A stretch of 64,000 nucleotides of DNA, taken from positions 800,001-864,000 of the forward strand of contig OZ219858.1 in NCBI GenBank assembly GCA_964291395.2, read 5' to 3'. Within the stretch, counting starts at the first letter, position 1. Each line of letters opens with the position of its first letter. Under the pieces are notes generated by a model, which did not search any database, was not told the origin of the DNA, and saw nothing but the letters and a program-made list of their open reading frames with translations. A program made the position numbers and the translations under genes. This stretch comes from Alphaproteobacteria bacterium. Its GTDB lineage: Bacteria; Pseudomonadota; Alphaproteobacteria; UBA2966. Shown here in pieces: positions 68 through 17,032 of this stretch.

Positions 68-548
68 GGCGCCCCCGGCTCCCATAACCGACGACGGGCG
101 GCGCGATCCGTCATCAAACCGCACACGCCCGGCATAAAATCGGGGCGCATCCAAGCGCATGCGCGATGGGAACACAAGCGGCGCGAACGGAGGATGAGGC
201 AAAAAATATAGTGAATATAATGCGTTATACGCACCCGAGCGCAGTCCGTGCAGGGCCGGCGTTCGGCGGCATCGACAGCCCATGCGCAGTCGAATAGGAA
301 TCGTTCCGCGCGACCGACGACGCATCCGCTTCGTGTGGACCGGCCGGGGACCGGCGGACGCCGAGATCTTGAGCTGGCGGGACCGGAAGGCCGAGAGCAG
401 GCCATGTGTTCAGGGCGGCCTTACTTGTCGCCGAGTCGCGATTGCGATAGATACCGGTCCGGCAGCCCGAGAACCGACGGTAAGCTGCCCTGGCATAACC
501 CGAAGGCGCGGGTTCGGAATTCGCGCCGCCGGAAACCGAGGAAGAGCC

Positions 549-1472
549 GTGCCTGGCGTTCTGTGGCTCGCGTCGTACCCCAAGTCCGGCAACACGTGGG
601 TTCGCGCCTTCATCGCGAACTACCTGGTGAACGCCGATTCACCCGTCCCGATCAACGATCTTCCCGAATTCGTCAAGGGCGACGGCCCCAAGCACTTCTA
701 CGAAGAAGTTCTCGGATTCCCCATAACCAAACCGCTGTCCCCGAAGGAGACCCAGGAGCTGCGGCTTCTCGTGCACAAGAAATTCGCATACGAGAGCCAG
801 AACACGACGATCGTCAAGACCCATAACGCGATCGCATACCTCGACGACATCCCGACCATCAATCCCGAGGCTACCGAGGGCGCCGTGTACATCATGCGCA
901 ATCCGCTCGACGTCGTGCTGAGCTATGCGCATCACTACGGCATGACCCACGACGAGGCGATCGAGAGGCTGGGTTCTGAGGAAAACGCCCTGGGCGGAAC
1001 GGAACGGCAGGTCCTGCAGTTCCTGGGAAGCTGGAGCCAGCATGTCCGGAGCTGGGTCGAGGCTCCGGGCCTCAAGGTCCACGTCATGCGTTACGAGGAC
1101 ATGCTTCTCGGACCCTCCGACTCGTTCTCCGGACTCGTCAAGTTCCTGGAGCTTCCCGAAGAGCCCGAGCGGCGCGAGAGGGCCATCGAATTCAGCTCGT
1201 TCAAAACGCTGGCGGGCCAGGAGAGGTCCCAAGGGTTCATCGAGGCCGTTCCCGCCAGGGAGCATGCGGCATTTCGGGGCAAGAGCGTGGAAACGGTGCC
1301 GCAAACCGCCAGGTTCCAGGGCGAGAACCGGGTTCGCTTTTTCCGTTCGGGGAAACTGGGGGCCTGGCGCGACCAGCTCACCGAGGAACAGGTATCCCGC
1401 GTCGTCGACGATCACCGGGAGGTGATGGAGGCGCACGGCTATCTCGATGAACGGGGCGCACCGGTATTCTGA
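549..1472 (+). CDS. PAPS-dependent sulfotransferase
   Basis: WLASYPKSGNTW (5'-PSB loop), YIMRNPLDVVLS (3'-PB), RYED and FFRSGKLGAWR motifs. GTG at 549 follows GAGGAAG; the track start at 282 is over-extended. Confidence 0.9.
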   Translation: MPGVLWLASYPKSGNTWVRAFIANYLVNADSPVPINDLPEFVKGDGPKHFYEEVLGFPITKPLSPKETQELRLLVHKKFAYESQNTTIVKTHNAIAYLDDIPTINPEATEGAVYIMRNPLDVVLSYAHHYGMTHDEAIERLGSEENALGGTERQVLQFLGSWSQHVRSWVEAPGLKVHVMRYEDMLLGPSDSFSGLVKFLELPEEPERRERAIEFSSFKTLAGQERSQGFIEAVPAREHAAFRGKSVETVPQTARFQGENRVRFFRSGKLGAWRDQLTEEQVSRVVDDHREVMEAHGYLDERGAPVF

Positions 1473-1538
1473 GCGCCGGCCGGGACCGGACCCGGGGTCC
1501 GAATTGCTCCGGAGCCCGCCGGCCGGCCCCCTGATGTC

Positions 1539-3293
1539 ATGGAAACGCGGCGCCCGCTCCTGAACCTGTTGCTCGCCGGTCCGGCGAATGCCGGGGTCAC
1601 GGCGCTCACGCGCCGTCTCGCCGGCGAGGATGACAGTCCGTTCCCGACCGGGGACAACGACTGCGTCGCGATCGACGCCTCGGCCGACTCCGCCGGGATC
1701 CTGCAACGGGTGATGCGGGAAACCGTCGTCGCGGATGGCCTCGTACTGGTGTGCGACGCTGCCGACCGGCGTTTCGAGCGTTTCGAGAGCGCCGCGCGGC
1801 TGGCCTCGGTGCTGGGCATCGACCAGGTCGTGGTCGCACTCAACAAAGTAGACCGCCTCGCGACCCCGGACGAACTGGACGAGGCGCGGGAGCGCGTCCG
1901 GCGGACGATCGTCCGGACCGGGGTGGAATGCCCGGCGATCGTGCCCCTGTCGGCGCGGACGGGCGGGAACGTCCGGGACTCCGCTGACGGGGTCCTCGGA
2001 AACGACGGCCCCTCGCTCACCGACATCATCAGCGGCTTCGAGGCGCCGCCGACGCCGTCCGACCAGCCGCTGCGCCTCCCCCTGACGGGAACCGCCGACG
2101 ATGGCGGGCCGCGTTTCCACGAAGGCCGGCTGAAGAGCGGCGTGCTCGTGGAAGGGGACCGGGTCATCCTTTCCCCGTCCAACGTGGCGGCGCGCGCCGC
2201 TCGCCTGCGGATCCCGGATGGCGGCCGCGACACCCGGACCGCGCGCGCGGGCGACCGCGTGTCGTTGCTGCTGGATGCCGAAGCGGACGTCGCGCCGGGC
2301 CAGCTTCTCAGCCACGCCGAAAACCCTCCGGTGGAGTCGGACGTGTTTCGCGCCAAGGTTTGGTGGCGGCGGCGTCAGCCGCTGATCCCCGGTTCACGGA
2401 TCGGCGCGGACATCGGAGACCGGGTGGTGGACGCCGAGGTTCAGTCCATAGACCACGTCATCGATCCTTCCGAAATCGCGAACGTGGATGCCGACAGGCT
2501 GTCCCGCGGCCACATCGGCGAAGTCGTGGTGCGGGCCCCGGGGATGCTCGCGCTCGATACGCCGGCAACCTGTCCGGCGAATTCACGAGTCAGGTTCCTG
2601 GACGACGACGGCGTATCGGCCTGGGGCTTCATCGGCATGGAAGGCTACGCCGACCAGCGGAACGTCGTAACGGTCCGGGCGACGAACGTGACGCGGGTGG
2701 CTCACCACGTCTGGACCGACGCGCGCGTCGCAAGGCACAGGCACCGCGGGGGCGTGCTCTGGTTCACCGGCCTCTCCGGCGCCGGCAAGTCCACGCTGGC
2801 CGTCGAGGTCGAACGGTCGCTGTTCGACAAGGGGTACGAGGTCTACGTGCTGGACGGCGACAACGTGCGCCACGGGCTCAACGCGGACCTCGGGTTCTCC
2901 CCCGAGGACCGTTCCGAGAACATCCGACGGGTGGGGGAGGTCGCGGCGCTGTTTTCCCGCGCCGGCATCGTCGCCATCTCGGCGTTCATCTCGCCGTACC
3001 GTTCCGACCGCGCGCGCGCGCGCGCCGCGGCCGGAGACGGCTTCCACGAGATCCACATCAAGGCGCCGCTCGAAGTCTGCGAACGCCGGGATCCCAAGGG
3101 TCTCTATGCGCGGGCGCGAAGCGGCGAGATCAGGGACTTCACGGGAATCTCGGCTCCCTACGAGTCGCCCGAAGCGCCCGACCTCGTCGTCGACACGGCG
3201 GCGAACGACGTCGCGTCTTGCGTCGGACGGGTGGTGGCCTACGTCGAGACCGTCTTGTCGGTGGACGGCGGGCCGGGCGCCCCTAAGCCTTAG
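1539..3293 (+). CDS. cysC: CysNC/NodQ-like protein: degenerate EF-Tu-like GTPase region fused to adenylyl-sulfate kinase
   Basis: C-terminal WFTGLSGAGKST, LDGDNVRHGL, DRSENIRR, RDPKGLY and FTGISAPYE. The N-terminus keeps NKVD and PLSA, but the G1 position reads GPANAGVTA. Confidence 0.85.
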   Translation: METRRPLLNLLLAGPANAGVTALTRRLAGEDDSPFPTGDNDCVAIDASADSAGILQRVMRETVVADGLVLVCDAADRRFERFESAARLASVLGIDQVVVALNKVDRLATPDELDEARERVRRTIVRTGVECPAIVPLSARTGGNVRDSADGVLGNDGPSLTDIISGFEAPPTPSDQPLRLPLTGTADDGGPRFHEGRLKSGVLVEGDRVILSPSNVAARAARLRIPDGGRDTRTARAGDRVSLLLDAEADVAPGQLLSHAENPPVESDVFRAKVWWRRRQPLIPGSRIGADIGDRVVDAEVQSIDHVIDPSEIANVDADRLSRGHIGEVVVRAPGMLALDTPATCPANSRVRFLDDDGVSAWGFIGMEGYADQRNVVTVRATNVTRVAHHVWTDARVARHRHRGGVLWFTGLSGAGKSTLAVEVERSLFDKGYEVYVLDGDNVRHGLNADLGFSPEDRSENIRRVGEVAALFSRAGIVAISAFISPYRSDRARARAAAGDGFHEIHIKAPLEVCERRDPKGLYARARSGEIRDFTGISAPYESPEAPDLVVDTAANDVASCVGRVVAYVETVLSVDGGPGAPKP

Positions 3294-3906
3294 GGGCGGA
3301 GAGACCGGCGATCGCGGCAAGCCCCGCCGCCCCGCAGTTCAAAAGGCGGGGGGCCGTGTCGGACGTCAGGCCTCCGAGGGCGTAGACGGGGAAGTCCCGG
3401 AGCATCCGTCTCGCCGCCCGGTTGAGCGCGGAGAACCGGACCGCTCCGAGCGGCCGCACGTCCGGATGGCTTTCGGTGGCGAACACCGGTCCGAGCAGCG
3501 CGGCGTCCGATCCGGCGCGCCACGCCGCCACGAGCCCCCGCCGTGAATGAGCGGCCGCCGTGATGATCCATTGGGGACGGTGTCGCCGCCATCGCCGCGC
3601 TTCCGCCGACCGTCTCTCGGGGAAATGCACTCCCTCGGCGGAAACGCGCATGGCCAGGGGGCCGTCGCCGCCGATGAGCAATCGCAGGCCGCGATGCCGG
3701 CACAGGCTGGCCAGTTCCCGCGCGAGAGCGGGTCGATCCGGATCGTCGTAGTGGCGCAGGATCACTCCGGCGCCGCGGGGGAGCGTCGCCGCGGCGGGCA
3801 GCGGGTCGGGCAGGCGCACGCCGTCCGTCAGCAACAGGATCGGAGGCAGTTTGCCCCCGCCGGGATGCCGCGAATTGAGGCGCGTGGCGAGCTCTGTTAG
3901 GGTCAT
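3283..3906 (-). CDS. Thiamine-phosphate synthase ThiE/TenI family
   Basis: GVHFPE, AAHS, GPVFATESHP and PVYALGG motifs. Confidence 0.85.
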   Translation of the reverse strand: MTLTELATRLNSRHPGGGKLPPILLLTDGVRLPDPLPAAATLPRGAGVILRHYDDPDRPALARELASLCRHRGLRLLIGGDGPLAMRVSAEGVHFPERRSAEARRWRRHRPQWIITAAAHSRRGLVAAWRAGSDAALLGPVFATESHPDVRPLGAVRFSALNRAARRMLRDFPVYALGGLTSDTAPRLLNCGAAGLAAIAGLSAPKA

Positions 3907-3960
3907 GCGTCGGAGTCGAAGAGCTCCCGCGACAGTGCCACGAGCGCGGAGTCACCGCAA

Positions 3961-4653
3961 TTGGCGGATCGCCATCAGGATGCCGTCGATGTCGCGGCCA
4001 ATCTTCGAGCGGTACAGGAGCGAATCGCCGGGGCCGCCCGGGAATCCCGCCGGGAGGCGCCGGACGTAAGCCTGATCGCGGTCTCCAAGACCCACGGCGC
4101 CGAACGCATCGCGCCGGCGCTGGACGCGGGCCACCGGATATTCGGGGAGAATCGGGTCCAGGAAGCGGAGGCGAAGTGGCCGCCGCTCAGGCAGGCCTTC
4201 CCCTCGGTGGAGCTCCATCTCATCGGCCCGCTGCAGACCAACAAGGCGAAAGCGGCCGTCGCGTTGTTCGACGTCATCCAGACGGTCGACCGGCCGAAGC
4301 TCGCCGGGGTCCTGTCGGACGAGATGTCGCGTACGGGCCGGCGACGGGAATGCTACGTCGAGGTGAACATCGGCGAGGAATCCCGGAAGGCGGGCGTGCC
4401 GCCGATGGAGGCCGACCGGTTCATCGCGGAATGCCGGGAACGGTATCAGCTGCCGGTGCGGGGCGTGATGTGCATCCCCCCGTTCGATCAGGAGCCCTCC
4501 CCCTATTTTGCGCTGTTGGCGAAGATCGCGGAACGGAACGGTCTCCCTTCGATCAGCATGGGGATGAGCGGCGACTACGAAATTGCCGTCGCTTTCGGCG
4601 CCACCCACGTCCGGGTCGGCACCGCCATCTTCGGCCCCCGCGAGCCACGGTGA
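3961..4653 (+). CDS. yggS: YggS family PLP-binding protein
   Basis: LIAVSKT, FGENRVQE, HLIGPLQTNK, SMGMSGDY, VRVGTAIFG. Confidence 0.95.
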   Translation: MADRHQDAVDVAANLRAVQERIAGAARESRREAPDVSLIAVSKTHGAERIAPALDAGHRIFGENRVQEAEAKWPPLRQAFPSVELHLIGPLQTNKAKAAVALFDVIQTVDRPKLAGVLSDEMSRTGRRRECYVEVNIGEESRKAGVPPMEADRFIAECRERYQLPVRGVMCIPPFDQEPSPYFALLAKIAERNGLPSISMGMSGDYEIAVAFGATHVRVGTAIFGPREPR

Positions 4654-4675
4654 TGCGCCGCGGACCGCCGCCGAT

Positions 4676-5176
4676 TCATCCCCGTATGTCGATTTCCGTA
4701 TCTCGATCGCAGTCCCTCAGTACGGCGAGAAGATCGTCCATCGCGAGCGCGACGCATCCCGCCGTCGGGGCGAACCGGTCGCGCGCGACGTGCAGAAAGA
4801 TCGCGCTGCCCCGGCCCGGCGACGGCGGCCGGTCGTTGTAGCCGATCACCAAGACGACGTCGTAGACGTGATCGTCACGCCACAGCCGTTCGGCGCTGCA
4901 GACGTGGGGCAGGGACACCAGCCGGTTGTAGGACGGGTCCCGCGGATCGTCGCACCAGCCGTCGTGCATCCGGATCGGCCGGACAGGGAGGCCGGTCTCC
5001 GGGCGGGATACGCGGTCCTGCCGGTAGAGCACCTGCCGCAAGGGGTGGACACCGGCCGGCGTCGCGCCGTCGCCCTCCCGTTTTTCCGCGGTCACGCCGC
5101 CCCACCCGAGAGCGCAAGGATAGACGGCCCCTTGGAAGGCGAGCGCCGCTTCCGCGCTAACGACGATGCGGTTCAG
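4676..5176 (-). CDS. L,D-transpeptidase family protein
   Basis: KREGDGATP, WCDDP and GSAIFLH...PTAGCVA. The frame stays open upstream of the track start through YPCALGWGG to a CTG at 5176; start uncertain. Confidence 0.8.
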   Translation of the reverse strand: MNRIVVSAEAALAFQGAVYPCALGWGGVTAEKREGDGATPAGVHPLRQVLYRQDRVSRPETGLPVRPIRMHDGWCDDPRDPSYNRLVSLPHVCSAERLWRDDHVYDVVLVIGYNDRPPSPGRGSAIFLHVARDRFAPTAGCVALAMDDLLAVLRDCDRDTEIDIRG

Positions 5177-5300
5177 TTTGAAATCTCATGGCGCCGGTAA
5201 CGGCCCTGCCTGTCGTATCGACGAGGGCCTCGGCCTGCTTGTCGTCGAACCCGGCGCCCTTGAGTTCCTCGACCGCTGCAGGCGTATCGAAGTTGCTCAT
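5157..5300 (-). pseudogene. Truncated DUF1640/CCDC90-like remnant (47 aa)
   Basis: MSNFDTPAAVEELKGAGFDDKQAEALV resembles the FDT...L..AGF...QAEA family N-terminus; the coiled-coil and TM tail are missing. Confidence 0.55.
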
Positions 5301-5371
5301 GTCCCGGATCATAGTGCCGGAACGAATTTTGACAATCGGGCGCACGCCGGAGTGACGTACGGGAGTTCGTG

Positions 5372-6043
5372 TCAGTGGGCGAGGCGAAACAGCAGCCGAT
5401 ATAAGCCGTAATTCAGCTCGGACCCGGTTCCCTGGGCCCGAATCACGGATTCTTTCAGGAGCGCCGCCCGCGCCGCCTGCAGATCCTCGGGCCGCGTGCC
5501 CTCCCAGGCGATGAGCCAGTCGATCGCAGCCGTCGTCGTGGGCACGAACCCCCGGGACCCCGCCGCGAGCGCCTCGGCGTTCGTCTCCCACAAGTGCGCC
5601 GACACCACACCGTGCTGGTTCACGAGTCGGGGCAGCGCCACGTGGGTGATCCAGGCGCGCAGGTCTTCCTGGCGGCCGGCCTCCGGTCTCAGCGCCAGAA
5701 ATCCCATGACTCCGCCCTCGCCCTCGCCGGCGCTCGCCGTGACGGAACAGATGGTGCGCCGCGTGTTGTAGAACTTGGGCACGTTCTCCCGCTCCGCCAG
5801 GTCCGGGTTGCCGCCCGCGTCGAGATAGTCCTGGGAGGCGAGCACCGACACGTCGTCCGTGCCGTAGACCGCCGCGTAGCGCGGCGACCCCAGGATCGCC
5901 TCGTAGCGCTTGCCCCACTGGAAGCCGTCGACGATCACGCGGCTCTTCACGTGCTCGCGGGTGTACCATTCGTCGACCGCGTCGTCTTCGTCGAGCGGGA
6001 AGTCCGTAAAGATGATGAGTATGCCCTTCGGCGCCGCGGCCAT
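5372..6043 (-). CDS. Hypothetical protein, tandem dimeric alpha-beta barrel (DUF4286/EthD-like)
   Basis: DEWYTREHV...GFQWGKRY...PRYAAVY and a second repeat LRAWITHVALP. Confidence 0.65.
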   Translation of the reverse strand: MAAAPKGILIIFTDFPLDEDDAVDEWYTREHVKSRVIVDGFQWGKRYEAILGSPRYAAVYGTDDVSVLASQDYLDAGGNPDLAERENVPKFYNTRRTICSVTASAGEGEGGVMGFLALRPEAGRQEDLRAWITHVALPRLVNQHGVVSAHLWETNAEALAAGSRGFVPTTTAAIDWLIAWEGTRPEDLQAARAALLKESVIRAQGTGSELNYGLYRLLFRLAH

Positions 6044-6066
6044 GATACGACCCCTTCCCCGCCCGG

Positions 6067-6309
6067 CTACGAGACCCGCCTGATCAGGAATTCGTAGACC
6101 CCGGCGTCGTCACGCCATTCCGTGAGCTCGTTTGCCGAGGCATCACAGTAGGCCTGGAAATCGGCGATCGAACCGGGATCCGTCGCCAGAACGCGCAGCA
6201 GTCCGCCCGGCGGCACGTCCCGCAGCGCCTTGCGGGCCCTGAGCACGGGCAGCGGGCATTTCAACCCCTTGGCGTCGAGGACGACCTCGGCGGCGGCGTG
6301 TTCGCTCAC
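6067..6309 (-). CDS. tusA: TusA/SirA family sulfur carrier
   Basis: LDAKGLKCPLPVL...VLATDPGS; GGGAGG SD. Confidence 0.9.
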   Translation of the reverse strand: MSEHAAAEVVLDAKGLKCPLPVLRARKALRDVPPGGLLRVLATDPGSIADFQAYCDASANELTEWRDDAGVYEFLIRRVS

Positions 6310-7335: not shown

Positions 7336-7523
7336 GCGATACGGTTGGACGGTTCCGTGGTCCAAGCCGTATTGACTCGGTGGGGAGAAGACCACCACGT
7401 GAAGTTGGTCGATGCCGGGGAGTCGTCTTCAACCTCCTGAAATCGCCACCACTCCAGAAGGGTCTACGTCCATCATTCGCACAATGTTGGGGAGCGCGCT
7501 ATACGGCCCGTATCGGGCCACAT

Positions 7524-7542
7524 TATGAGAATTATTCGCATT
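7524..7542. promoter_or_regulatory. Fur-type box upstream of hemP
   Basis: TATGAGAATTATTCGCATT, an imperfect 9-1-9 palindrome matching the other sites in the cluster. Confidence 0.75.
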
Positions 7543-7623
7543 TGCATTTACAATCCAAATCCTTTGCGCTATAGAAGGACGGTGTCGAACGTCGTTCGAG
7601 CTTGAGCGACGGGAGACGCGTCC

Positions 7624-7985: not shown

Positions 7986-8801
7986 GTGTCACGCCACAAC
8001 ACCGATCACTACCACACACCGAACCCGGCCGACGGGTCCGAAGCCGCGTCGAAGGACGCCGGTACGTCCGTCGTCTACGTCCGCCCGAAGGACGTTCACC
8101 TGACCCTCGCCGACCTGACGGAAGCGGAGAGCCTCGTCCTGTGGGCCATCAGGACCTGGGTTCGAGGTTTCATGCGGGATATTCCCGTTGCCAAGAGCAT
8201 CGTCAACGGATTGCGCCGCGCGCACGCCGAGAAGATCTTTATGGAACTCGACGGACTCATGTCGCTCTTCGGACGCAACGCGCGACGGCGTCTCGACGTT
8301 CGGTGCCCCGCGTGCGGCTCTCTGAGCCCTGACGAGTACGGCTTTCTGCTGCTCATCGGAGCGGCCCAAGCCGGGCTGAAGGACCTGGTCCAAGCAGTCG
8401 CACGGGAAGGGCTGGAACCTCCGGCTCCGTCATATGGTGCCCTACAGGCCGATCGACTGGCGGCGAATCTGCGCGCCGGTGGGATTGAGCTGCCGCTGCG
8501 GACTCCCAAGGTTGCCGAGAATTCCTCCATGCACGCAATGGCACCCCTTCCGGGCAACCGTACCGTTCGTCTCGGGGTGACAGGACGCGCCGTGGCGGCT
8601 CGGCGGGAGGAGCGGATTGTTTCATGGCCTGCACTCGCCCCGCCACTTGAACTGAACCTGGGAATTGGGGACGGCACCGTGGGCCGAGGGCCTCGGACGC
8701 CGGGTCTCCCGACCGTCGACCTGCGGTGCCCCGTGTCGTTCCTGTGGCGTTGGTGGGCTCAAACCGCCGGCGAGTATCGACCGACGATTTGCCGCTATTG
8801 A
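7986..8801 (+). CDS. Hypothetical protein with CPAC motif, probably iron-regulated
   Basis: Protein-like core LVLWAIRTW...RRLDVRCPACGSLSPDE. GTG at 7986 follows GGGAG; the last ~80 aa look non-coding-like. Confidence 0.6.
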   Translation: MSRHNTDHYHTPNPADGSEAASKDAGTSVVYVRPKDVHLTLADLTEAESLVLWAIRTWVRGFMRDIPVAKSIVNGLRRAHAEKIFMELDGLMSLFGRNARRRLDVRCPACGSLSPDEYGFLLLIGAAQAGLKDLVQAVAREGLEPPAPSYGALQADRLAANLRAGGIELPLRTPKVAENSSMHAMAPLPGNRTVRLGVTGRAVAARREERIVSWPALAPPLELNLGIGDGTVGRGPRTPGLPTVDLRCPVSFLWRWWAQTAGEYRPTICRY

Positions 8802-8837
8802 AAATCATTCGTAAAGGTATTGACAATCATTCTTATT
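8797..8837. promoter_or_regulatory. Two Fur-type boxes upstream of bfd
   Basis: ATTGAAAATCATTCGTAAA (8797-8815) and ATTGACAATCATTCTTATT (8819-8837), the second containing TTGACA. Confidence 0.7.
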
Positions 8838-8888
8838 TGCACCAAAAAGGGGCTGCAACAGGACACCGACAGGACGGCGCCACGAGCC

Positions 8889-9080
8889 ATGTACGTTTGC
8901 ATCTGTAATCGTTACCGGGACAGCGACCTCCGCGACCTCGCGGCTGACGGCGCCCGCTCGGCGGAAGAAGCGTATTCCGTGCTCGGAAACGGTCCGCAGT
9001 GCGGCCGCTGCCTTCAATTCGCCCAGGCCCTGATGGACGAAGTGACGGCGGCGGCGGTCGCGGAATCGACCGTGGGCTGA
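8889..9080 (+). CDS. bfd: Bacterioferritin-associated ferredoxin
   Basis: MYVCIC...CGRC [2Fe-2S] pattern, 63 aa. Confidence 0.9.
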   Translation: MYVCICNRYRDSDLRDLAADGARSAEEAYSVLGNGPQCGRCLQFAQALMDEVTAAAVAESTVG

Positions 9081-9281
9081 CGAGTTCGGGACGGGAAATC
9101 CCGGCGATGTTCTGTTGGCCCCGACTTCGTTCAAAAAACCTTCTGGCGGCCGCGCGCTATGTCTCGGGCGCGCTGTCGGCGGGCCAACCGCGCCCCCGGG
9201 ACCCGCAAGCGGGTTTGGCGGGATCGGCCGGCATGAAAATCGAGGACCCGGGCTCCGGGGTGACGGGACGGGTCCGGCCGG

Positions 9282-9752
9282 TCACTCGCCGCTCTGAAAC
9301 TGAACAAAGTTCTCCAGACCCATTGTATCTATGAGCCCGAGCTGGGTTTCCAGCCAGTCGACGTGCTCCTCTTCCCCTTCCAGAATGTCCTCGAGCAGTT
9401 CGCGGGTCACGTAGTCCGACTGCTGCTCGGAGCATGCAATGGCCTCCCGAACCAGCGGGATCGCCTCGTGTTCCAGCCTGAGATCGCAGTCCAGAACCTC
9501 CTTCACGGTTTCTCCGATCAGGAGCTTGTTGAGGTCCTGGAGGTTCGGCAGACCCTCGAGAAACAGAATCCGCTCGACCAACCTGTCCGCGTGCTTCATC
9601 TCGTCCACCGATTCCTCGTACTCGTGTTTGGCCAGACGAGACACACCCCAATTCTTCAACATGCGTGAATGCAGGAAGTATTGATTGATCGCCGTCAACT
9701 CGTTCCTCAGGACACGATTGAGGAAATCGACAACCTTCGCGTCACCTTGCAC
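9282..9752 (-). CDS. bfr: Bacterioferritin
   Basis: NELTAINQYFLH, DEMKHAD, RILFLEGLPN, EEEHVDWLE; GTG at 9752 follows AAGGAG. Confidence 0.95.
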   Translation of the reverse strand: MQGDAKVVDFLNRVLRNELTAINQYFLHSRMLKNWGVSRLAKHEYEESVDEMKHADRLVERILFLEGLPNLQDLNKLLIGETVKEVLDCDLRLEHEAIPLVREAIACSEQQSDYVTRELLEDILEGEEEHVDWLETQLGLIDTMGLENFVQFQSGE

Positions 9753-9852
9753 GGCACTCTCCTTCGCTGATCGATCGGATACCACCGGTGCGGATCCGAT
9801 GATTCCGCATCATGTCGCAAGAACTTTCGCCTGACCACGGCAACGACTCGCT

Positions 9853-9890
9853 TGACGCAATTCTGCGATTGATTATCATTATTATATAAT
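9853..9890. promoter_or_regulatory. sigma70-like promoter overlapped by a Fur box between bfr and the DUF4856 gene
   Basis: TTGACG...TATCAT on the + strand. The minus strand reads AATAATGATAATCAATCGC, 15/19 to GATAATGATAATCATTATC. Confidence 0.6.
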
Positions 9891-10014
9891 CGCGGGTACT
9901 CACACACCGTCGGCCGGGCGCCCGACCCGTTCCTGACGCGCCTCAGATGGGATAGCCACCCCACACGGGCGCCGAATCATACAAGAGATCCAAGGGCTTG
10001 GAATATGTATTGCG

Positions 10015-10064
10015 AGTGTGAATTATTCGCATTGATCAATGTGCAATTGTGAATTATTCTCAAT
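10015..10064. promoter_or_regulatory. Two Fur-type boxes upstream of the DUF4856 gene
   Basis: AGTGTGAATTATTCGCATT (10015-10033) and ATTGTGAATTATTCTCAAT (10046-10064). Confidence 0.75.
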
Positions 10065-10099
10065 ATCATGAATCAGCGACGAACGCGAGGACGAGTCAA

Positions 10100-11524
10100 A
10101 TGAGCAAAGCAATCACCGCGGGGACCGCGGCGGTCACTTTGGCGCTGCTTTCCGGCGCGGCGCTGGCCGACGACATGGTCTACGCCGGCTTCCCCGTGAC
10201 CGTGAAAGGGTACAGCGGCAGTAAAACGACGTCGGTCTCCTACACCGGGCAGGTCGCCCGTCACGTTCTTCACGATTCGCTGAAGAAACTCGCCGGCTCC
10301 GGCAACGGAAAGCCCAATCCGGAACTGAAGGCCAAGATGATGGCCTACTTCGGCGGGAAGGACGCCGGACGCGAGATCATCGCGCCGGCGACCAAGGGGC
10401 CGTTCGCGATCTCCCAGTCGGCGGTCGACGAGATCAGCAAGGGGAAGAACCTGTCCGGCAAGACGTTCAAGGCCGCCGTCACGGGCATGCCGAACGGCAT
10501 GATCGGCCCGGAGCTGGTCGAATTCTGGATCGACAAGGCGTCGTCCGCCAACAAGGGATTCGACAAGGACAACGGTTACGATTATCCGCAACTGATCTCC
10601 AAGTACGTCATGGGCGCGGTGTTCTACAACCAGGCCGCCGACGGCTATCTGGACGAGTATCTCAGCGCGGACAAAAAGCCCAACGACAAGCCCTACAAGG
10701 ATGGAGCGGCCTACACCGGGAAAGAGCACTCTTGGGACGAGGCCTTCGGCTATTTCGGGACGCCGGCCCACACGCTGAAGCTCACGCCGAAGCAGGTCTA
10801 CGGCATCGCGAAGCGCAAGTCCGAGGCTTTCGCGGACGCCGACTACAACAAGGACGGGAAGGTGGATCTGAGAACCGAAATGACGTTCGGTCCGGCCTAT
10901 TACGCCGCGGGGTTCGACGCCTCCGTCTACGACAAGAGCAACGGAACCAGCTACCTGCACACGATCACGAAGGCCTTCCTCGACGGCCGCAAGCTGCTCA
11001 CGGACGCCAAGGGCGAGAAGCTGACGGACGAACAGCGCGACCAGCTGAAGCGCCATGCTTCGGTCATCACGCGGAATTGGGAGAAGGTCCTGGCCGAGGC
11101 AACCTTCAAGTATGCGGGTTCGGTCTACAAGGACATGGTGAAGCTCCAGACCATCGTGGACTCCGGCGGAGACCCGAGCAAGGCGTTCCGCGCGTACGCG
11201 AAGCACTGGGGAGAGCTCAAGGGCTTCGCCCTCGCGTTGCAGTCCGGCAAGGACAACCTCGGCGAGACGGCGACGAGGCTGAACCGGATGATCGGCGCCG
11301 GCCCGCTGCTGCTCAACGCCAGCCAGGTCGTCGACATCGACAGCCAGGGCAACTACGTTCGCGACCAGGGACCGGACTGGGGCGAGTACATGCTCCACAT
11401 GGCCAAGGTGCAGAAGCTGATGATCGACCAGTTCGGCGTCCAGGCGCGCAACAACGACGTGACGGGAGAGATGGCGGCGTTGGCCGGCCAGCTCGGCGAC
11501 AAGGCGTCCGCCGAAAACGACTAG
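10100..11524 (+). CDS. Secreted DUF4856-like iron-regulated protein
   Basis: Sec signal peptide ending ALA-D. SYTGQ, QLISK..MGAVFYNQA, EHSWDEAFGYFG and KHWGELKGFAL motifs recalled for DUF4856. Confidence 0.75.
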   Translation: MSKAITAGTAAVTLALLSGAALADDMVYAGFPVTVKGYSGSKTTSVSYTGQVARHVLHDSLKKLAGSGNGKPNPELKAKMMAYFGGKDAGREIIAPATKGPFAISQSAVDEISKGKNLSGKTFKAAVTGMPNGMIGPELVEFWIDKASSANKGFDKDNGYDYPQLISKYVMGAVFYNQAADGYLDEYLSADKKPNDKPYKDGAAYTGKEHSWDEAFGYFGTPAHTLKLTPKQVYGIAKRKSEAFADADYNKDGKVDLRTEMTFGPAYYAAGFDASVYDKSNGTSYLHTITKAFLDGRKLLTDAKGEKLTDEQRDQLKRHASVITRNWEKVLAEATFKYAGSVYKDMVKLQTIVDSGGDPSKAFRAYAKHWGELKGFALALQSGKDNLGETATRLNRMIGAGPLLLNASQVVDIDSQGNYVRDQGPDWGEYMLHMAKVQKLMIDQFGVQARNNDVTGEMAALAGQLGDKASAEND

Positions 11525-11696
11525 GACGGTTCCGGTTTGACCGGAAGCGCCAGGGAACAGGTGTCGGACCCGGACGAGCGATAATGCGGGGTCCGACACC
11601 GATCCCTGCACCAGCTTCCCGCCGTAAGAAACCGCGGGCAGGGGCCGGAACGACGGCGTCCCGGCCCCCGTGGTTTTTCCCGGGGATAGGTTGATC

Positions 11697-13712
11697 ATGG
11701 ACGCCCTGTTCGTCGATTACGTCGACCGTCTGGCCGACCAGCTCCTCAACCCGCAGAAGCGGGTTTTCATCGGCTACCTGGCAAGCGCTTTGGTTCTGGC
11801 ACTCGGAGTCCGGGTGTTCGCCGCCAGAACGACGCTCCTTCGAGCGCCGGCCCGGATATTCAGCGCCAGGGTCTGGTGGTCCCGGTCGGCGAAGGCGGAC
11901 TACAAGATCGCCGCCCTCAATCAGGCGATCATGATGGGCGTGGCCCCGCGCCTGATTTCCCAACTGGCGGTGGCCACCCTCCTGTTCGAAGCCATGCACG
12001 TTTGGTTCGGCGGGCGTCCCCTCGTCTGGCTCGAAGTGCCCGGCTGGGCGGTTGCCGGCGTGTTTACCGTCGTGCTTTTCCTCCTCGATGACGCGACCAA
12101 GTATCTGCTCCACCGATGCCTCCACGCATCGCCCGTCCTGTGGTGTTTCCACAAGGTTCACCACACGGCGGAGACGATGACTCCGTTCACGGTGTATCGC
12201 ACCCACCCGGTCGAGGCCGTGCTCTTCGCCTTGCGCGCCACCTTGGTGCAGGCGGTCGCCATGGCGGCGTTCTTCTTCTTTCTGGGCGACCGCGTGGAGC
12301 TGATGACGGTATTCGGAGCCAACGTGATCCTGTTCGTGTTCAACGTCGCCGGATCGAATCTCCGTCACTCCCACGTATGGATCTCCTATGGACGCGTCAT
12401 CGAGCACGTCCTGATCTCGCCGGCACAGCACCAGATCCACCACTCCGTCGATCCGCGGCACCACGATCGGAACTTCGGAACCGTGCTGGCGATTTGGGAT
12501 TGGATGGGGCATAGCCTGTGTCTTGCCGAACGCGGGCATGAAATCCGCTATGGGGTGACGGGCGCCGCGCCCGAGCCTCACGGTTTGAAGGCCGTCTATC
12601 TCGAACCCTTTCGGGAAGCCGTCGCGGGCTTGTCCGGACTACGATGCTGGAGACCTGTCAAGATGTTTTCCTCGCTGAATTCCCGGCCGCTCCGCCGGAG
12701 CGGTATCGCCATCCTCGCCGCCGCGCTGGCAACCGTGCTCGAAGCGGCCGCGTCCGGCGCTTCGTCGCAGGACCTCAACATCTATTCGCACCGCCAACCG
12801 TTCCTGATCAACCCGTTCATCGAGGCGTACGAGGAGCGGACCGATGTGACGATCAACATCGTCTTCGCCTCCAAGGGACTGGCGCAGCGCCTTCAGGCGG
12901 AGGGACCGCGGAGCCCGGCGGACGTCGTGCTGACGGTCGATATCGCCCGTCTCCATACGTACGCCGACAAGGACCTCCTGGCGCCCGTCGAGTCGGCCGT
13001 TCTGACGAAGAACATCCCGCCTCATCTGCGCGATCCCGGCAACCGTTGGTTCGCCTTTTCCAAGCGGGCCCGCGTGATCGTCGTCTCGAAAAAGGCGGAG
13101 GACGGCTTCTCGATCAAGAGCTATGAGGATCTGACGGATCCCAAGTGGAAAGGCCGCATCTGCGCGCGGCCGGGCAGTCACGTGTACAACAGGGCCCTGA
13201 TCGCCTCCTTGATCGAATCCCGGGGCGAGGAAGGGGCACAGGCCTGGGCGCAGGGCCTGTTCGACAACCTGGCGCGACGGCCGCAAGGCAACGACCGGGC
13301 GCAGGTGAAGGCGATCTACGAGGGCGTGTGCGACGTCGCCATCATCAACAACTACTATTACGGAAAACTGAAGCGGTCCGACGTACCCGAACAACGCGAG
13401 TGGGCGGCGGCCGTGCGCCTGATCTTTCCAAATCAGGACGGCCGCGGAACGCATGTCAATATTTCGGGCGGAGGCGTCGCCAAGCATTCCAAGAACAAGG
13501 AACGAGCGGTTCACTTCCTGGAGTTCTTGACATCCGAGACCGCTCAGAAGCTGTATGGCTCCATCAATTACGAGTATCCGGTGAATCCGGCCGTCGAGCC
13601 GTCGGACGAGCTGAAGTCCTGGGGAGCGTTCAAGGAAGATCAGATGCCCATCGCCCGTATCGCCGAATTGGCCCCACAGGCGCAGCGCGTCATCGACCGC
13701 GTGGGATGGTGA
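11697..13712 (+). CDS. Sterol desaturase/fatty-acid hydroxylase membrane domain fused in frame to an Fe(III) ABC substrate-binding protein (FutA/FbpA)
   Basis: His boxes HRCLH, HKVHH, RHSH and HQIHH. No stop before the internal signal peptide (ATG 12663) and LNIYSHRQ, SPADVVLTVD, GNDRAQVKAI, NNYYYG, NYEYPV. Confidence 0.9.
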   Translation: MDALFVDYVDRLADQLLNPQKRVFIGYLASALVLALGVRVFAARTTLLRAPARIFSARVWWSRSAKADYKIAALNQAIMMGVAPRLISQLAVATLLFEAMHVWFGGRPLVWLEVPGWAVAGVFTVVLFLLDDATKYLLHRCLHASPVLWCFHKVHHTAETMTPFTVYRTHPVEAVLFALRATLVQAVAMAAFFFFLGDRVELMTVFGANVILFVFNVAGSNLRHSHVWISYGRVIEHVLISPAQHQIHHSVDPRHHDRNFGTVLAIWDWMGHSLCLAERGHEIRYGVTGAAPEPHGLKAVYLEPFREAVAGLSGLRCWRPVKMFSSLNSRPLRRSGIAILAAALATVLEAAASGASSQDLNIYSHRQPFLINPFIEAYEERTDVTINIVFASKGLAQRLQAEGPRSPADVVLTVDIARLHTYADKDLLAPVESAVLTKNIPPHLRDPGNRWFAFSKRARVIVVSKKAEDGFSIKSYEDLTDPKWKGRICARPGSHVYNRALIASLIESRGEEGAQAWAQGLFDNLARRPQGNDRAQVKAIYEGVCDVAIINNYYYGKLKRSDVPEQREWAAAVRLIFPNQDGRGTHVNISGGGVAKHSKNKERAVHFLEFLTSETAQKLYGSINYEYPVNPAVEPSDELKSWGAFKEDQMPIARIAELAPQAQRVIDRVGW

Positions 13713-15385
13713 GCCAAGCCGCTCTCGGCGGCGCCACGAAGGCCGGAAATCGGGTTACGCCCTGGACCCTCGCGGCGGTCGCCCTCGCGCTCGTATTCTT
13801 CGCGCCGATTCTCTCGGTGTTCGCCGCCGCGACGGGCGATAGCGGCGGGCTGTGGGATCATCTGTTCCGGACCGTGTTCCCGCGCTACGTGGCCAACACG
13901 TTGACCCTGATGGCCGGAGTCGGCTCCGTCAGCCTGTTGTTCGGAGTGGCGGCCGCGTGGGTGGTTCACCGATACGCGTTCCCGGGCAGAGCGATCCTGC
14001 AATGGATGCTGCTGCTGCCCGCCGCGGTCCCGACCTACCTCATCGCCTATACCTACACGGACTTTCTCGAGTATGCCGGGCCCCTGCAACAGGTGCTGCG
14101 CGACATGTTCGGATGGCGAAATGCCCGAGACTACTGGTTCCCGGAAATCCGTTCCATGGGGGGCGCCTCGCTCGTGCTCGGCGCGGTTCTCTATCCCTAC
14201 GTCTACATGATGGCCCGCACGGCATTCCTGTTGACGCCGGCCGGGCTGTTCGAGGTCGGAATGCTCGCCAAGCGAAATCTCTTCTTCAACGTCGCGCTGC
14301 CGCTGGCCCGGCCGGCCATCGTCGCGGGGTTGGCTTTGGTGTTGATGGAGACGATCTCGGAGTTCGGCGCCGTCGAGTACTTTGCCATCGAGACCATCAC
14401 GCTGGGCATCTTCAACGTCTGGCTCGGCATGAACAGCCTGCCCGCGGCCGCCCAAATCGCCTCCGTCTCCACGCTCTTCATCGTCGCCCTCCTGTGCGTC
14501 GAGCTGCTGGCGCGCTCCCGCAGACGGTTTACCAACACCAGCCGGAAGACCATGCCGCTGGCCGCGACCCCAGTGGGCGGATTGAAGGCTCTCGCCTGCG
14601 CCGCCGTGTGCCTGACGCCCGTGGTGGTCGGTTTCGTGATTCCCGCCGGACTCCTGTCGGGCTTCGTCCTTCAGGGACACTCGCTCGAATTCGACAGCGG
14701 CGTGGTGACCGCGTCCCTCAACTCCATCGCCCTTGCCGGGGCCGTGGCGTTCTTCGTCATCGCGTCGGCGGCGTTCATGGGACTCGTCGCCCACTACCAG
14801 GGCGGCGTCCCGCTGAAGCGCCTGACCGCCCTCGCCTCGGTCGGCTACGCATTCCCCGGCACGATCCTCGCCATCGGCGTGATCACGGTGGGCGGAGCGA
14901 TCGACGACGGCATCGGCGCGTTCGTCGAGAACACCCTGGGCCTGTCCTATCAGGGCTGGTTGACCGGGGGCATCGGCCTCGTCGCCATTGCCTGCACCGT
15001 TCGATTTCAGGCCGTCGGCTACGGGGCGATTACGACGGGGCTCCAGCGGCTGCCGCCCAACATGATGGAAGCCAGCCGCTCTCTGGGACACACGTTCGCG
15101 CAGAGCCTGCGCGACGTCATCCTGCCGCTGCTCCGTCTCCCCCTGATCACGGGAGGGTTGCTGGTGTTCGTCGACGTGATGAAAGAGCTGCCCATGACGC
15201 TTCTGCTGCGGCCGTTCAATTACGAGACGCTGGCCACGTACGTGTATCAGTTCGCCAAGGACGAGTTGCTGGAAGAGGCGGCCCTGCCGGCGCTCTTCAT
15301 CGTCATCGTCGGCATCCTGCCGGTCATCGCGATGAACGCCATGCTGCGCAGGATCGCCCGGCAGGACACGTCCGCGCCCCGCTGA
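13706..15385 (+). CDS. fbpB: Fe(III) ABC transporter permease (FbpB/FutB)
   Basis: LYPYVY..AR, LPLARPAI, EASRSLG, FVDVMKELP.TLLLRPFNYETLA; overlaps the upstream stop. Confidence 0.92.
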   Translation: MVSQAALGGATKAGNRVTPWTLAAVALALVFFAPILSVFAAATGDSGGLWDHLFRTVFPRYVANTLTLMAGVGSVSLLFGVAAAWVVHRYAFPGRAILQWMLLLPAAVPTYLIAYTYTDFLEYAGPLQQVLRDMFGWRNARDYWFPEIRSMGGASLVLGAVLYPYVYMMARTAFLLTPAGLFEVGMLAKRNLFFNVALPLARPAIVAGLALVLMETISEFGAVEYFAIETITLGIFNVWLGMNSLPAAAQIASVSTLFIVALLCVELLARSRRRFTNTSRKTMPLAATPVGGLKALACAAVCLTPVVVGFVIPAGLLSGFVLQGHSLEFDSGVVTASLNSIALAGAVAFFVIASAAFMGLVAHYQGGVPLKRLTALASVGYAFPGTILAIGVITVGGAIDDGIGAFVENTLGLSYQGWLTGGIGLVAIACTVRFQAVGYGAITTGLQRLPPNMMEASRSLGHTFAQSLRDVILPLLRLPLITGGLLVFVDVMKELPMTLLLRPFNYETLATYVYQFAKDELLEEAALPALFIVIVGILPVIAMNAMLRRIARQDTSAPR

Positions 15386-15457
15386 CCGGTCATCCCGTAC
15401 GGATACGTCTCTCCAAGCGGTCGAGACCGTTCTCCCGAAATCCGTCCTGGGAGTCCC

Positions 15458-15500
15458 GTCCTGGAACGCCGTTGGTGTCACACCGACGACGCTCCAGGAC
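15458..15500. repeat. 20-bp-stem inverted repeat
   Basis: GTCCTGGAACGCCGTTGGTG-TCA-CACCGACGACGCTCCAGGAC, 17/20 Watson-Crick pairs. Confidence 0.7.
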
Positions 15501-15698
15501 TCGCTCCAGGCTCAGGGAGGCGAGCACCCGGCAAGGAGCACGACCAGTCGGCCGGCAACCACCATTGAGGTCAGTGATCCGAGAATGCTCGCTCTGGAGT
15601 GGGACAAACGCCGCAGGCACGAGGCCGTCGGCGGAGGACATGACCCGCTCGCCCTTCGTCACGGATCGGAAGACATTCCCGCGATCCGTGCGCATTAT

Positions 15699-15784
15699 AT
15701 TGCGAATTAGTCTTAATCGCATGATGCGTCATTCATGCGGGAAACGAGACCCCGAGTCAAGTGTTAATGCGAACTATTCGCAAA
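15699..15784. promoter_or_regulatory. Two Fur-type boxes flanking a minus-strand sigma70-like promoter; target unknown
   Basis: ATTGCGAATTAGTCTTAAT (15699-15717) and AATGCGAACTATTCGCAAA (15766-15784), with minus-strand TTGACT-N17-CATGAA between them. Confidence 0.65.
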
Positions 15785-15954
15785 TTTTGTCGCATCCCGC
15801 CAGCCACTTGGATGACGGAGATCGGAAAGCCCCGCCCGCCGTCCTCGGTCCATAAGAATCGGTTATCCGGCTCCGAGGAAATCGGTATTGGTGGTCGTAC
15901 CGCGTCCTCCCCACGTCAATTCTAGAAAGTCCTCAGCAGATCGGGAGCAATCCG

Positions 15955-16173
15955 ATGTTGGACAGACGCAGAGGCCTCAGAAAAATCATCACCACGGTCG
16001 GTCACATCGTGGGGAATTTCGTGTCCCGAGCCGGTGTGGAGACCCCGAAGAAGAGGCCACCCTCACGGCAGCAGGGCGAGGCACCGGACGGCGAGCATCG
16101 CCGGCGGGTGATCTATCGCTGCACCCTCTCGACGCCGCACCGCCTTAGCGGCTTCAGAATCTGGGACGCATAG
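15955..16173 (+). CDS. Possible small hypothetical protein (72 aa)
   Basis: GGGAG SD 7 nt before the ATG; no recognisable domain. Confidence 0.3.
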   Translation: MLDRRRGLRKIITTVGHIVGNFVSRAGVETPKKRPPSRQQGEAPDGEHRRRVIYRCTLSTPHRLSGFRIWDA

Positions 16174-16201
16174 GAGGACCCCTCGCAATAGGCCTCGACG
16201 A

Positions 16202-17032
16202 TCAGACCGGCCGATCACCCGCGACAGTGAACCTGTAGCCGTGCCGCACCTCGGGATGGTAGTCGAACATGGCGTAGTGCTGGGCGCAACGGTTGTCCCA
16301 GAACGCCACTGAATTCGCTCGCCATCTAAAGCGGCAATGGTACTTCGGCTGGCGGATGTGTTCGTAAAGCATCCCGAGGACGGCGTCGCTTTCGGCGGCA
16401 GTCACATCCTTGATGTGTGAGGTGAAGATCTCGTTCACGAACAAGGCCTTGCGCCCGGTCACAGGGTGGGTGCGCACAACCGGATGCTCCGAAACCGGCG
16501 GTGTCTCGTCCCGGAGCTGCGGGCTCTGCTCCTGGCGACCGTCGTAGACCTGTGGCGCGCTGTGCACCGCAGTGAGACCCGAGAGGAACTGTTGCATGGT
16601 GTCCGACAGATCCTCGTGAGCCGCATACATGCTGGCGAAAAGAGTGTCGCCGCCGGTGCTTGGCGCTTCCGTCAGGTAGAGGATGCTGCCCATCGGCGGC
16701 TCAGGGTCGCAGGACACGTCCGAGTGCCAGCCGCCGCTCCCCGCCGCGAATTTGGTCGTCTCGTCGGCGCGGATGATCAGCAGTTCGGGATGCCCCAGGT
16801 CTCCCGACCCGAACATGGGATGGATGTGCAATTCGCCGAACTGCCGTGCGAACACCTTGTGCTGATCGATGGTCATGTGCTGGTCACGGAAGAAGATGAC
16901 CTGATGCTCCATGAGAGCGTCGTGGACCTCCTTGAAGGTCTGGTTACCCAACGGCTTCGATAGGTCGATACCGCCGATCTCGGCACCGATGCGGGGGGTT
17001 ACGGGCTCGACGTGAATCGTCTCATAGGTCAT
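16202..17032 (-). CDS. TauD/TfdA Fe(II)/2-oxoglutarate dioxygenase
   Basis: WHSDVS, GGDTLFASM, HPVVRTHP, FWDNRCAQH. Confidence 0.93.
   Translation of the reverse strand: MTYETIHVEPVTPRIGAEIGGIDLSKPLGNQTFKEVHDALMEHQVIFFRDQHMTIDQHKVFARQFGELHIHPMFGSGDLGHPELLIIRADETTKFAAGSGGWHSDVSCDPEPPMGSILYLTEAPSTGGDTLFASMYAAHEDLSDTMQQFLSGLTAVHSAPQVYDGRQEQSPQLRDETPPVSEHPVVRTHPVTGRKALFVNEIFTSHIKDVTAAESDAVLGMLYEHIRQPKYHCRFRWRANSVAFWDNRCAQHYAMFDYHPEVRHGYRFTVAGDRPV

Follow-up and report, generated by a model that had tools for sequence, protein, structure and literature searches.

The window analysed here, a stretch of 64,000 nucleotides from an alphaproteobacterial genome (contig OZ219858.1, positions 800,001 to 864,000), carries a gene in which a membrane protein of the FA_hydroxylase family of di-iron oxygenases and a ferric-iron binding protein of the FbpA/FutA type are encoded in one open reading frame. 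This fusion is a conserved architecture, which occurs far beyond chance and has been maintained in evolution. The probable explanation, taken as a whole, is an evolutionarily maintained fusion within an iron-starvation operon of the order DUF4856 protein, di-iron oxygenase, FutA/FbpA and FutB, with the origin, membrane topology, products and oxygenase role that are proposed below. The fused gene and its two domains are located as follows:

11697..13712, + strand: hydroxylase::FutA fused gene (671 amino acids, single open reading frame)
11697..12662, + strand: FA_hydroxylase-family membrane di-iron domain and predicted cytoplasmic tail (residues 1-322, five transmembrane segments, Pfam PF04116)
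12771..13709, + strand: FbpA/FutA-type ferric-binding domain, predicted to be periplasmic (residues 359-671; matches to 1Q35 and 7LI0)

The single open frame ends with a stop at 13712 and can be read either from a GTG at 11670, which gives 680 amino acids, or from the ATG at 11697, which gives 671. A first-pass annotation of the window had proposed an in-frame fusion with intact His boxes and an intact FutA domain, and this is borne out by family and structure matches on both sides of the junction. Residues 125-271 match PF04116 (FA_hydroxylase) with an E of 3.7e-21 and 76.4 bits against a cut-off of 31, while residues 370-646 are matched by four Pfam families of solute-binding proteins (SBPs), for example SBP_bac_6 at residues 407-636 (E 1.2e-17). 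The histidine motifs of the first domain are HRCLH (139), HKVHH (152), HSH (224) and HQIHH (245), with H170 as an additional residue. Because ten histidines (H139, H143, H152, H155, H156, H170, H224, H245, H248 and H249) and several acidic or polar residues are invariant among 117 fused and free homologs, this domain is most likely an active di-iron enzyme. For the FutA part, the closest PDB sequence match is 1Q35 (E 9.5e-88, residues 358-669) and the closest structural match is 7LI0 (Z 42.2, root-mean-square deviation 1.5, 310 residues aligned). R366, R457, Y497, Y553 and Y554 align with Arg10, Arg101, Tyr142, Tyr198 and Tyr199 of 1Q35, of which we take the three tyrosines to be iron ligands and the two arginines to bind the anion (carbonate). 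The motifs SHR (within YSHRQP) and NNYYYG are present in the window protein, and YSHRQP, KRARV, VYN and NNYY stand in the consensus of the fused proteins; judged by these matches, a complete ferric-binding protein of the FbpA/FutA type makes up the C-terminal domain.

A search of a large protein collection with the whole protein, in which 8000 candidates were scored, returned 522 hits at E ≤ 0.001, 120 of which were listed. Among these listed matches, all 120 clusters are 662-686 amino acids long, share 62-98% identity with the query at 99-100% query coverage, and carry both PF04116 and the SBP families, so that the search for FA_hydroxylase and SBP architectures suggested by the first-pass annotation yielded full-length examples throughout. 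Its view that the two families are normally separate holds only with a reservation, since the fused architecture is common in databases and is annotated there solely as a solute-binding protein: “extracellular solute-binding protein” and “iron(III) transport system substrate-binding protein” are the only names given to the listed fused clusters. In 41 related genomes the full-length gene was found in four of the six members of the genus and in none of the 35 others; same-genus relatives keep the frame open at 83% identity, and three further genomes of the genus share it. The record of G003 contains a run of N. A scan of species-representative genomes added 69 loci, from Rhodospirillales, Defluviicoccus, Nisaea, metagenome-assembled genomes (MAGs) of Hyphomicrobiales, one MAG of Gammaproteobacteria and marine single-cell genomes, including a single-amplified genome (SAG) of Pelagibacterales. 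The resulting set comprises 81 loci (L001-L081; L001 is the window, and L013, L016 and L037 duplicate L003, L004 and L002), of which 52 have both parts, 15 the hydroxylase only and 14 FutA only.

The two parts share one open frame in 33 of the 52 loci and are not fused in the remaining 19. In 17 of these the open frames of the hydroxylase and FutA genes overlap but are out of register with each other, and in two a shared frame is broken by a stop, which upholds the Rosetta-stone link between the two proteins put forward by the first-pass annotation. In these unfused relatives the oxygenase stop shortly precedes the FutA ATG, spans it, or follows it by as much as ~20 nt: at L041 the stop is followed by a same-frame ATG 12 nt on, and in the clade of marine SAGs the hydroxylase stops 8-20 nt past the FutA ATG, with an AGGAG located within the hydroxylase tail. 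This comparison shows the fusion to have arisen from an overlapping gene pair whose arrangement indicates translational coupling. A quick IQ-TREE analysis of the FutA part, with 63 rows, unites the hydroxylase-linked FutA proteins in one group, 56 in number, with a Shimodaira-Hasegawa-like approximate likelihood ratio (SH-aLRT) support of 99, separate from ordinary FutA proteins of genomes of the same family (48% identity). Within this tree, a clade of 14 marine SAG rows consists wholly of adjacent, unfused pairs, and a clade of 37 (SH-aLRT 98) contains all 31 fused rows together with three adjacent rows and three without hydroxylase. The distribution of the fused and unfused states takes at least five changes, two of them forced by starred branches, as compared to a mean of 21.4 for shuffled states. 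The hydroxylase tree agrees, and the free hydroxylases of L045, L054 and L059 are nested in the fused clade. On these trees the fusion is old, mostly kept and several times undone.

The junction itself contains three elements, all of which the first-pass annotation had pointed out and all of which are present in the sequence:

12649..12653, + strand: internal Shine-Dalgarno (SD)-like GGAGA (read from the sequence; SD core at the same place in 21 of 30 genomes)
12663..12665, + strand: internal ATG, Met323, putative ancestral FutA start codon (ATG in 28 of 30 genomes; aligned with the free-standing FutA starts of unfused loci)
12663..12770, + strand: signal-peptide-like segment, predicted sixth transmembrane helix (residues 323-358; hydropathy, residue conservation, structural model and the starts of mature FbpA chains)

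The linker in which they lie (residues ~305-358) is the least conserved region of the fused protein. Met323 is nevertheless kept in 31 of the 33 fused proteins, and 28 of the 30 distinct genomes have ATG as the junction codon; L036 has an ATG two codons later, and L039 has ATT. This conservation (28/30) is close to that of Met1 (29/30), with the next-best methionine column at 26/30. A GGAG, GAGG or AGGA core is located 5-16 nt upstream of the junction codon in 21 of the 30 genomes, against a background of 7.3% for all in-frame codons of these genes and 17.5% for internal ATGs (binomial p 9e-18, a value that is overstated, as the loci are kin). The codons under the core encode W-R-P, R-R-L or K-G-L depending on the lineage; because the core persists while the overlapped codons encode differing residues, its conservation points to selection on the RNA signal, and not on the protein.

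The peptide encoded from the internal ATG begins MFSSLNSRPLRRSGIAILAA and carries positive charge first, followed by a hydrophobic stretch. Features resembling a signal peptide recur among the fused proteins, with R333 in 25 of 33, a hydrophobic core at 337-355, G354 in 18 of 33 and A355 in 24 of 33, and the invariant mature N-terminus LNIYSHRQPFLI follows the small residues; solved mature FbpA chains start opposite residue 357-358. The AlphaFold2 (AF2) model places a helix at residues 333-352 with a low predicted local distance difference test (pLDDT) score. We read this as retention, under selection, of FutA's own start together with a putative signal peptide. The twin arginine to which the first-pass annotation had drawn attention, and which would be the mark of a Tat signal peptide, generalizes less well: RR is present in the window protein, but both positions are arginine in only 14 of the 33 fused proteins. 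Its suggestion that tethered and free FutA could come from one gene gains support, short of proof, from the conservation of the internal ATG and from that of the SD core, kept in 21 of 30 genomes against the background of 7.3%.

Six hydrophobic segments are indicated by hydropathy, at residues 23-41, ~80-104, 112-130, 175-193, 200-218 and 337-355. The peaks at 80-104 and 112-130 precede the first His box and those at 175-193 and 200-218 precede the third, and these segments are helices in the AF2 model. Loop 42-77 contains seven lysines and arginines against one acidic residue (D+E). The sole arrangement that leaves this loop inside and FutA outside would place the N-terminus out and the His boxes, as well as the tail at 219-336, in the cytoplasm, so that the old FutA signal peptide would act as a sixth helix running from inside to outside, with the FutA domain in the periplasm. 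This predicted topology agrees with that of the superfamily, whose metal site faces the cytosol. The AF2 model of the fusion, computed from the 117-sequence alignment, has a mean pLDDT of 86.2 and a predicted template modelling (pTM) score of 0.56, with both domains confident, while pLDDT falls below 50 at residues 317-337 and 346-357. The model predicts neither the sixth helix nor FutA to be packed in a fixed way against the membrane domain, and such an unpacked junction would fit a flexible tether as well as a cleaved signal peptide.

The genes and sites that surround the fused gene tie it to iron:

10100..11524, + strand: secreted DUF4856 protein, first gene of the module (474 amino acids from the ATG at 10100; the open reading frame opens with GTG at 10049; Pfam DUF4856, E 7.3e-11)
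13706..15385, + strand: FutB-type fused double permease (Pfam BPD_transp_1 in two stretches; its ATG overlaps the FutA stop)
8820..9080, + strand: gene of a Bfd-like [2Fe-2S] ferredoxin, part of the local iron locus (Pfam Fer2_BFD, E 1.5e-8)
9282..9785, - strand: bacterioferritin gene (Pfam Ferritin, E 1.3e-36; NCBIfam bfr TIGR00754, 237 bits against a cut-off of 125.55)
9865..9883, no strand assigned: Fur-box-like site between bfr and the DUF4856 gene (15/19, single top match of the 64-kb window)
10018..10067, no strand assigned: AT-rich direct repeat and Fur-box-like site just upstream of the likely DUF4856 start (14/19 at 10049; AT-rich island 10001-10084)

The order DUF4856 protein, hydroxylase with or without fusion to FutA, and FutB is that of a conserved module. 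Immediately upstream, 49 of the 52 loci that combine both parts have a DUF4856 gene; of the three exceptions two are cut by the contig end and one (L034) is genuine. FutB follows directly downstream in 46 of the 52, is absent despite room in five and is cut off by the contig end in L022. Fused genes without an adjoining FutB occur in L014, L015, L027, L040 and L069; the genomes of L015 and L069 have a lone FutB homolog (58-59% identity) elsewhere, and in the same two loci short FutA-like fragments are seen a few kb downstream of the fused gene. No gene for the ATPase of an ATP-binding cassette (ABC) transporter was found within positions 1-27 kb of the window. L017, L033 and L063 have such a gene next to the module, L039 and the window do not, and a candidate with 50% identity to the ATPase of L017 is present on another contig (C1) of the window genome; a missing ATPase as a special feature of the system was rejected on these grounds. 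The bfd gene lies upstream of the module only in the closest relatives, L013 and L016.

Fur-like sites were scored against the Fur-box consensus. The site at 9865 overlaps a promoter-like site at 9852-9879, and further top matches of the window lie at 10049 and, before bfd, at 8794-8834. In many related loci no Fur-like match scores better than one 10-60 nt upstream of the DUF4856 gene, with scores of 16/19 in L017, L018, L024, L031 and L042 and 17/19 in L038, relative to a background mean of ~10.7. The module is probably a Fur-controlled operon. A scan of 8600-16300 for promoters and terminators gave counts near the shuffled expectation, and no terminator-like site was found in it between the module genes on the + strand. 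The spacer between the DUF4856 gene and the fused gene is 172 nt long in the window and ~20-130 nt in related loci; it contains a perfect 11-bp inverted repeat (arms 11561-11571 and 11589-11599, 17-nt loop) with no T-run after it, which could be an element of mRNA processing or stability. Another iron-regulated promoter may lie in a further AT-rich island at 7518-7567, about 1.3 kb upstream of bfd and just downstream of an alpha/beta-hydrolase open reading frame, where two Fur-like sites score 13/19. Farther off, positions 282-3290 hold a sulfotransferase gene followed by a gene for a fused sulfate adenylyltransferase (GTPase subunit-like)/adenosine phosphosulfate (APS) kinase, both unrelated to the fusion.

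The DUF4856 protein, which the first-pass annotation had overlooked, is in this set of loci a more constant companion of the hydroxylase than FutA. It accompanies the hydroxylase in six of the 15 hydroxylase-only loci, and the free-standing hydroxylases of L005, L045, L054 and L059 still follow a DUF4856 gene. In the most distant members, L070 (positions 100-6281) and L071 (2758-8825), DUF4856, an imelysin, a TonB-dependent receptor and the hydroxylase form one four-gene operon; these come from a Pseudomonadota MAG and from Gayadomonas joobiniege, and the DUF4856 protein of L071 has an N-terminal cadherin-like domain. All 54 hydroxylases with a nearby DUF4856 gene cluster together (SH-aLRT 94), while nine without one (32-36% identity) fall outside. 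Because the DUF4856-linked hydroxylases group together and occur both with FutA-FutB and with the imelysin and TonB-dependent receptor, the constant pair is hydroxylase and DUF4856, plugged into two iron-uptake routes. Overall, the FutB neighbour, the Fur-like boxes and the variant with a TonB-dependent receptor and imelysin make a strong case, at the level of genome context, for a tie of the module to iron uptake. In an iron-limitation study of Ca. Pelagibacter ubique, the FutA homolog, there named sfuC, is the top responder, an “unknown protein” adjoining it (SAR11_1239) is up 2.47-fold, and the FbpA/FutA-type binding protein serves as an ocean iron-stress marker (PMC2864753).

The DUF4856 protein has a signal-peptide-like N-terminus and 812 cluster representatives as homologs at E ≤ 0.001. 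Q68, K185, Y200, D230, D265, E277, R314 and E389 are invariant, and E226, H227, W229 and E231 nearly so. An EF-hand-like loop, DxNxDGxVD...E, is encoded at 10823-10876 (residues 259-276) and includes the invariant D265 and E277; weak EF-hand_5 matches occur in 13 of 90 members, and the loop is a possible site for Ca2+ or another metal. The AF2 model is very confident (pLDDT 91.9, pTM 0.89), but a known fold was rejected: neither PDB sequences (nothing better than E 0.16) nor a Foldseek search of PDB with the model (no match at E ≤ 0.001) gave a relative, and VIA-align retrieved nothing beyond four-helix bundles of a generic kind, the best of them at Z 9.6, which is under the noise level that the tool states for helical proteins. 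A remote relationship to imelysin was not detected either, hhalign giving a probability of 6% with just two imelysin sequences in the opposing alignment, and no imelysin stood among the rows listed in the fold searches. Fea1 is an algal family of low-iron-inducible periplasmic proteins, and a language-model comparison offered it as a lead (score 0.84, 191 of 256 features shared); none of the 90 members matches Fea1 (PF07692) at E ≤ 1.

From these elements the following sequence of events may be proposed. The full-length protein would be made and its sixth helix would export the FutA domain. Free pre-FutA would also be made from the internal start, because its own ribosome-binding site, ATG and signal-peptide features have been kept under selection. 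Signal peptidase would probably release FutA from both the full-length and the internal-start products. Through the fusion, the oxygenase would be strictly co-expressed with the transporter and inserted into the membrane along with it. The oxygenase and DUF4856 would then act as an accessory pair for Fe(III) acquisition. As to the chemistry, an O2-dependent change to a lipid-soluble ligand or to a membrane lipid, aiding iron capture or release, has about an even prospect of being correct. Direct handling of iron at the cytoplasmic face, as acceptor, reductase or sensor, is rather doubtful, and a wholly different role of the oxygenase is to be given similarly little credence. The roles as ferric reductase, iron sensor or ligand-modifying enzyme that were offered in the first-pass annotation were pure conjecture and are possible, the reductase being without specific support. 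Tentatively, the oxygenase and DUF4856 could even represent an undescribed step of ferric-iron acquisition, in which the oxygenase frees iron from, or builds, a lipid-soluble iron ligand, or receives imported Fe(III) at the cytoplasmic face; fused lineages may in that case keep some FutA tethered, as a membrane-bound iron relay beside FutB.

Several points weigh against the account as a whole. A di-iron enzyme that is induced under iron starvation itself costs iron. The oxygenase site and DUF4856 are predicted to lie in different compartments, on the cytoplasmic side and in the periplasm, respectively, which leaves their cooperation unexplained, and this topology is inferred from hydropathy and charge alone. 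The Fur-like matches of the window reach only 14-15/19 to the consensus, and one 14/19 match lies within a gene. At L034, ~6 kb upstream of the pair were searched without a match to DUF4856. Since the loci are related, the binomial p for the SD core overstates the independence of the cases. Finally, the fused state has reverted at least two to three times (L041, L047/L048), and the FutA part was lost, with the oxygenase retained, in L045/L054/L059; because of such repeated fission and loss the physical linkage is dispensable, and perhaps near-neutral.

Some of these observations also feed the competing reading that survives best, according to which the oxygenase is an ordinary lipid enzyme, OlsE-like or a sphingolipid or fatty-acid hydroxylase, that is merely co-regulated by iron, either through its own need for iron or through membrane remodelling in starvation, with the fusion as a neutral accident of overlapping genes. 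Membership in PF04116, the predicted separate compartments, and the repeated fission and FutA loss all agree with it, as does a weak match to OlsE (NF052566; E 3.6e-8), but the latter reaches 33.1 bits against a cut-off of 475, so that identity with OlsE was rejected. Moreover, the subfamily adjoins iron-uptake genes in two architectures, FutA-FutB and TonB-dependent receptor with imelysin, DUF4856 is nearly always present (49 of 52 loci, and six of the 15 with hydroxylase only), and the annotated loci contain no conserved lipid-synthesis genes. Taking both sides together, unrelated chemistry is unlikely, without being negligible.

A second reading holds that the oxygenase mainly anchors FutA to the inner membrane beside FutB, comparable to binding proteins that are lipoproteins or are fused to a permease. 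The sixth helix would then stay uncleaved as a signal anchor, with the internal ATG and SD core surviving as relics. It draws on the frame that stays open, in 33 loci, across a linker variable in length and sequence, on a compatible predicted topology, and on the fused gene being the sole FutA-type match in the window genome with this query. Relics, however, would not be kept in a drifting linker, as the internal ATG (28/30) and the SD core (21/30, against 7.3%) are; small residues of the cleavage type persist (A355 in 24/33), all ten His ligands of the supposed anchor are invariant, fission has occurred several times, and the AF2 model docks neither the sixth helix nor FutA on the membrane domain. 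A mere tether is thus improbable. There is next to no chance of a private stop loss, frameshift or assembly artefact in the window genome, which the first-pass annotation had named as a possible undoing of the fusion, since imperfect individual records do exist (L023, L004/L016) but the same open frame is shared by the 120 listed clusters, 33 loci and three further same-genus genomes, with close relatives at 83% identity keeping it open.

As for the imperfect records, L023 has the fused junction, yet an in-frame stop (~5520) interrupts its hydroxylase domain, and it may be a pseudogene or an assembly error. A seeming in-frame insertion of 130 residues in FutA (L016 9843-10235, equal to L004 3343-3735) proved to be a run of N in the record and was discarded.

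The preferred reading, a maintained fusion in an iron-starvation operon, has consequences beyond the window. In many marine and environmental bacteria, inorganic Fe(III) enters mainly through ABC importers of the FbpA/FutA type. If two conserved, iron-regulated partners act with the importer, namely a secreted protein without a known fold and a membrane oxygenase whose di-iron site is intact, the accepted model of three parts does not cover the whole of ferric uptake. The module is also present in SAR11-like marine single-cell genomes, so that, if the undescribed step of ferric-iron acquisition suggested above exists, a new component would be added to the main iron-uptake route of abundant ocean bacteria. 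The fusion further provides a handle in two respects, as it would fix the membrane topology of a bacterial FA_hydroxylase-family protein, and offers a testable case of one gene giving rise to a membrane enzyme and a secreted binding protein via an internal start. Cultured carriers exist in Nisaea denitrificans (L033) and N. nitritireducens (L035).

The transporter part is of the ordinary FbpABC/FutABC kind. As in FbpABC, FutABC, SfuABC and HitABC, it has a full FbpA/FutA fold, an aligned Tyr/Arg site and a FutB-type fused permease with overlapping start and stop; its nearest solved relatives are those of Mannheimia (Pasteurella) haemolytica (1Q35), Moraxella (7LI0), Campylobacter (cFbpA, 1Y4T), Trichodesmium (6G7N) and Synechocystis (2PT1). 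Unlike in these systems, the binding protein of the window is encoded in frame behind a di-iron oxygenase with five predicted transmembrane segments, the operon opens with a secreted DUF4856 protein and the ATPase lies outside of it, and in contrast to ordinary FutA the hydroxylase-linked FutA proteins form their own clade.

The PF04116 superfamily includes Scs7p/FA2H, SUR2, ERG3/ERG25, CrtZ and the bacterial OlsE, and to our knowledge none of its members is known to take part in iron uptake. The window domain shares with it the HX3H, HX2HH and HX2HH boxes with extra histidines, and several transmembrane helices, but has an additional N-terminal helix and transmembrane segment and is fused to, or overlaps with, a transport binding protein. 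Searches of PDB at E ≤ 1, with the single sequence or with a profile of 36 sequences, gave no relative of the oxygenase domain, and in a fold search with the whole model the FbpA domain took up all the matches, which makes that search uninformative on the N-terminal one. A literature search found no paper on DUF4856, and none, supplementary tables being outside its coverage, on a pairing or fusion of such a hydroxylase with iron uptake or FutA; a sterol desaturase in PMC8552747 is a cold-response gene and was set aside as unrelated. The fusion and the two partner proteins are undescribed in the literature found, yet the architecture is plainly visible in sequence databases.

Two further kinds of system invite comparison. 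The imelysin (Peptidase_M75)/EfeO-type clusters are linked to the window through L070 and L071, in which the same pair of hydroxylase and DUF4856 stands with an imelysin and a TonB-dependent receptor, whereas the module of the window has neither imelysin nor receptor. Membrane-tethered binding proteins are known from OpuA, GlnPQ and the lipoprotein SBPs. Like OpuA and GlnPQ, the fused protein of the window joins a periplasmic binding domain to a membrane domain via a predicted transmembrane segment; it differs from them in that the membrane partner is a protein of an enzyme family instead of a permease, and in that the original start and the putative signal peptide of the binding protein have been kept.

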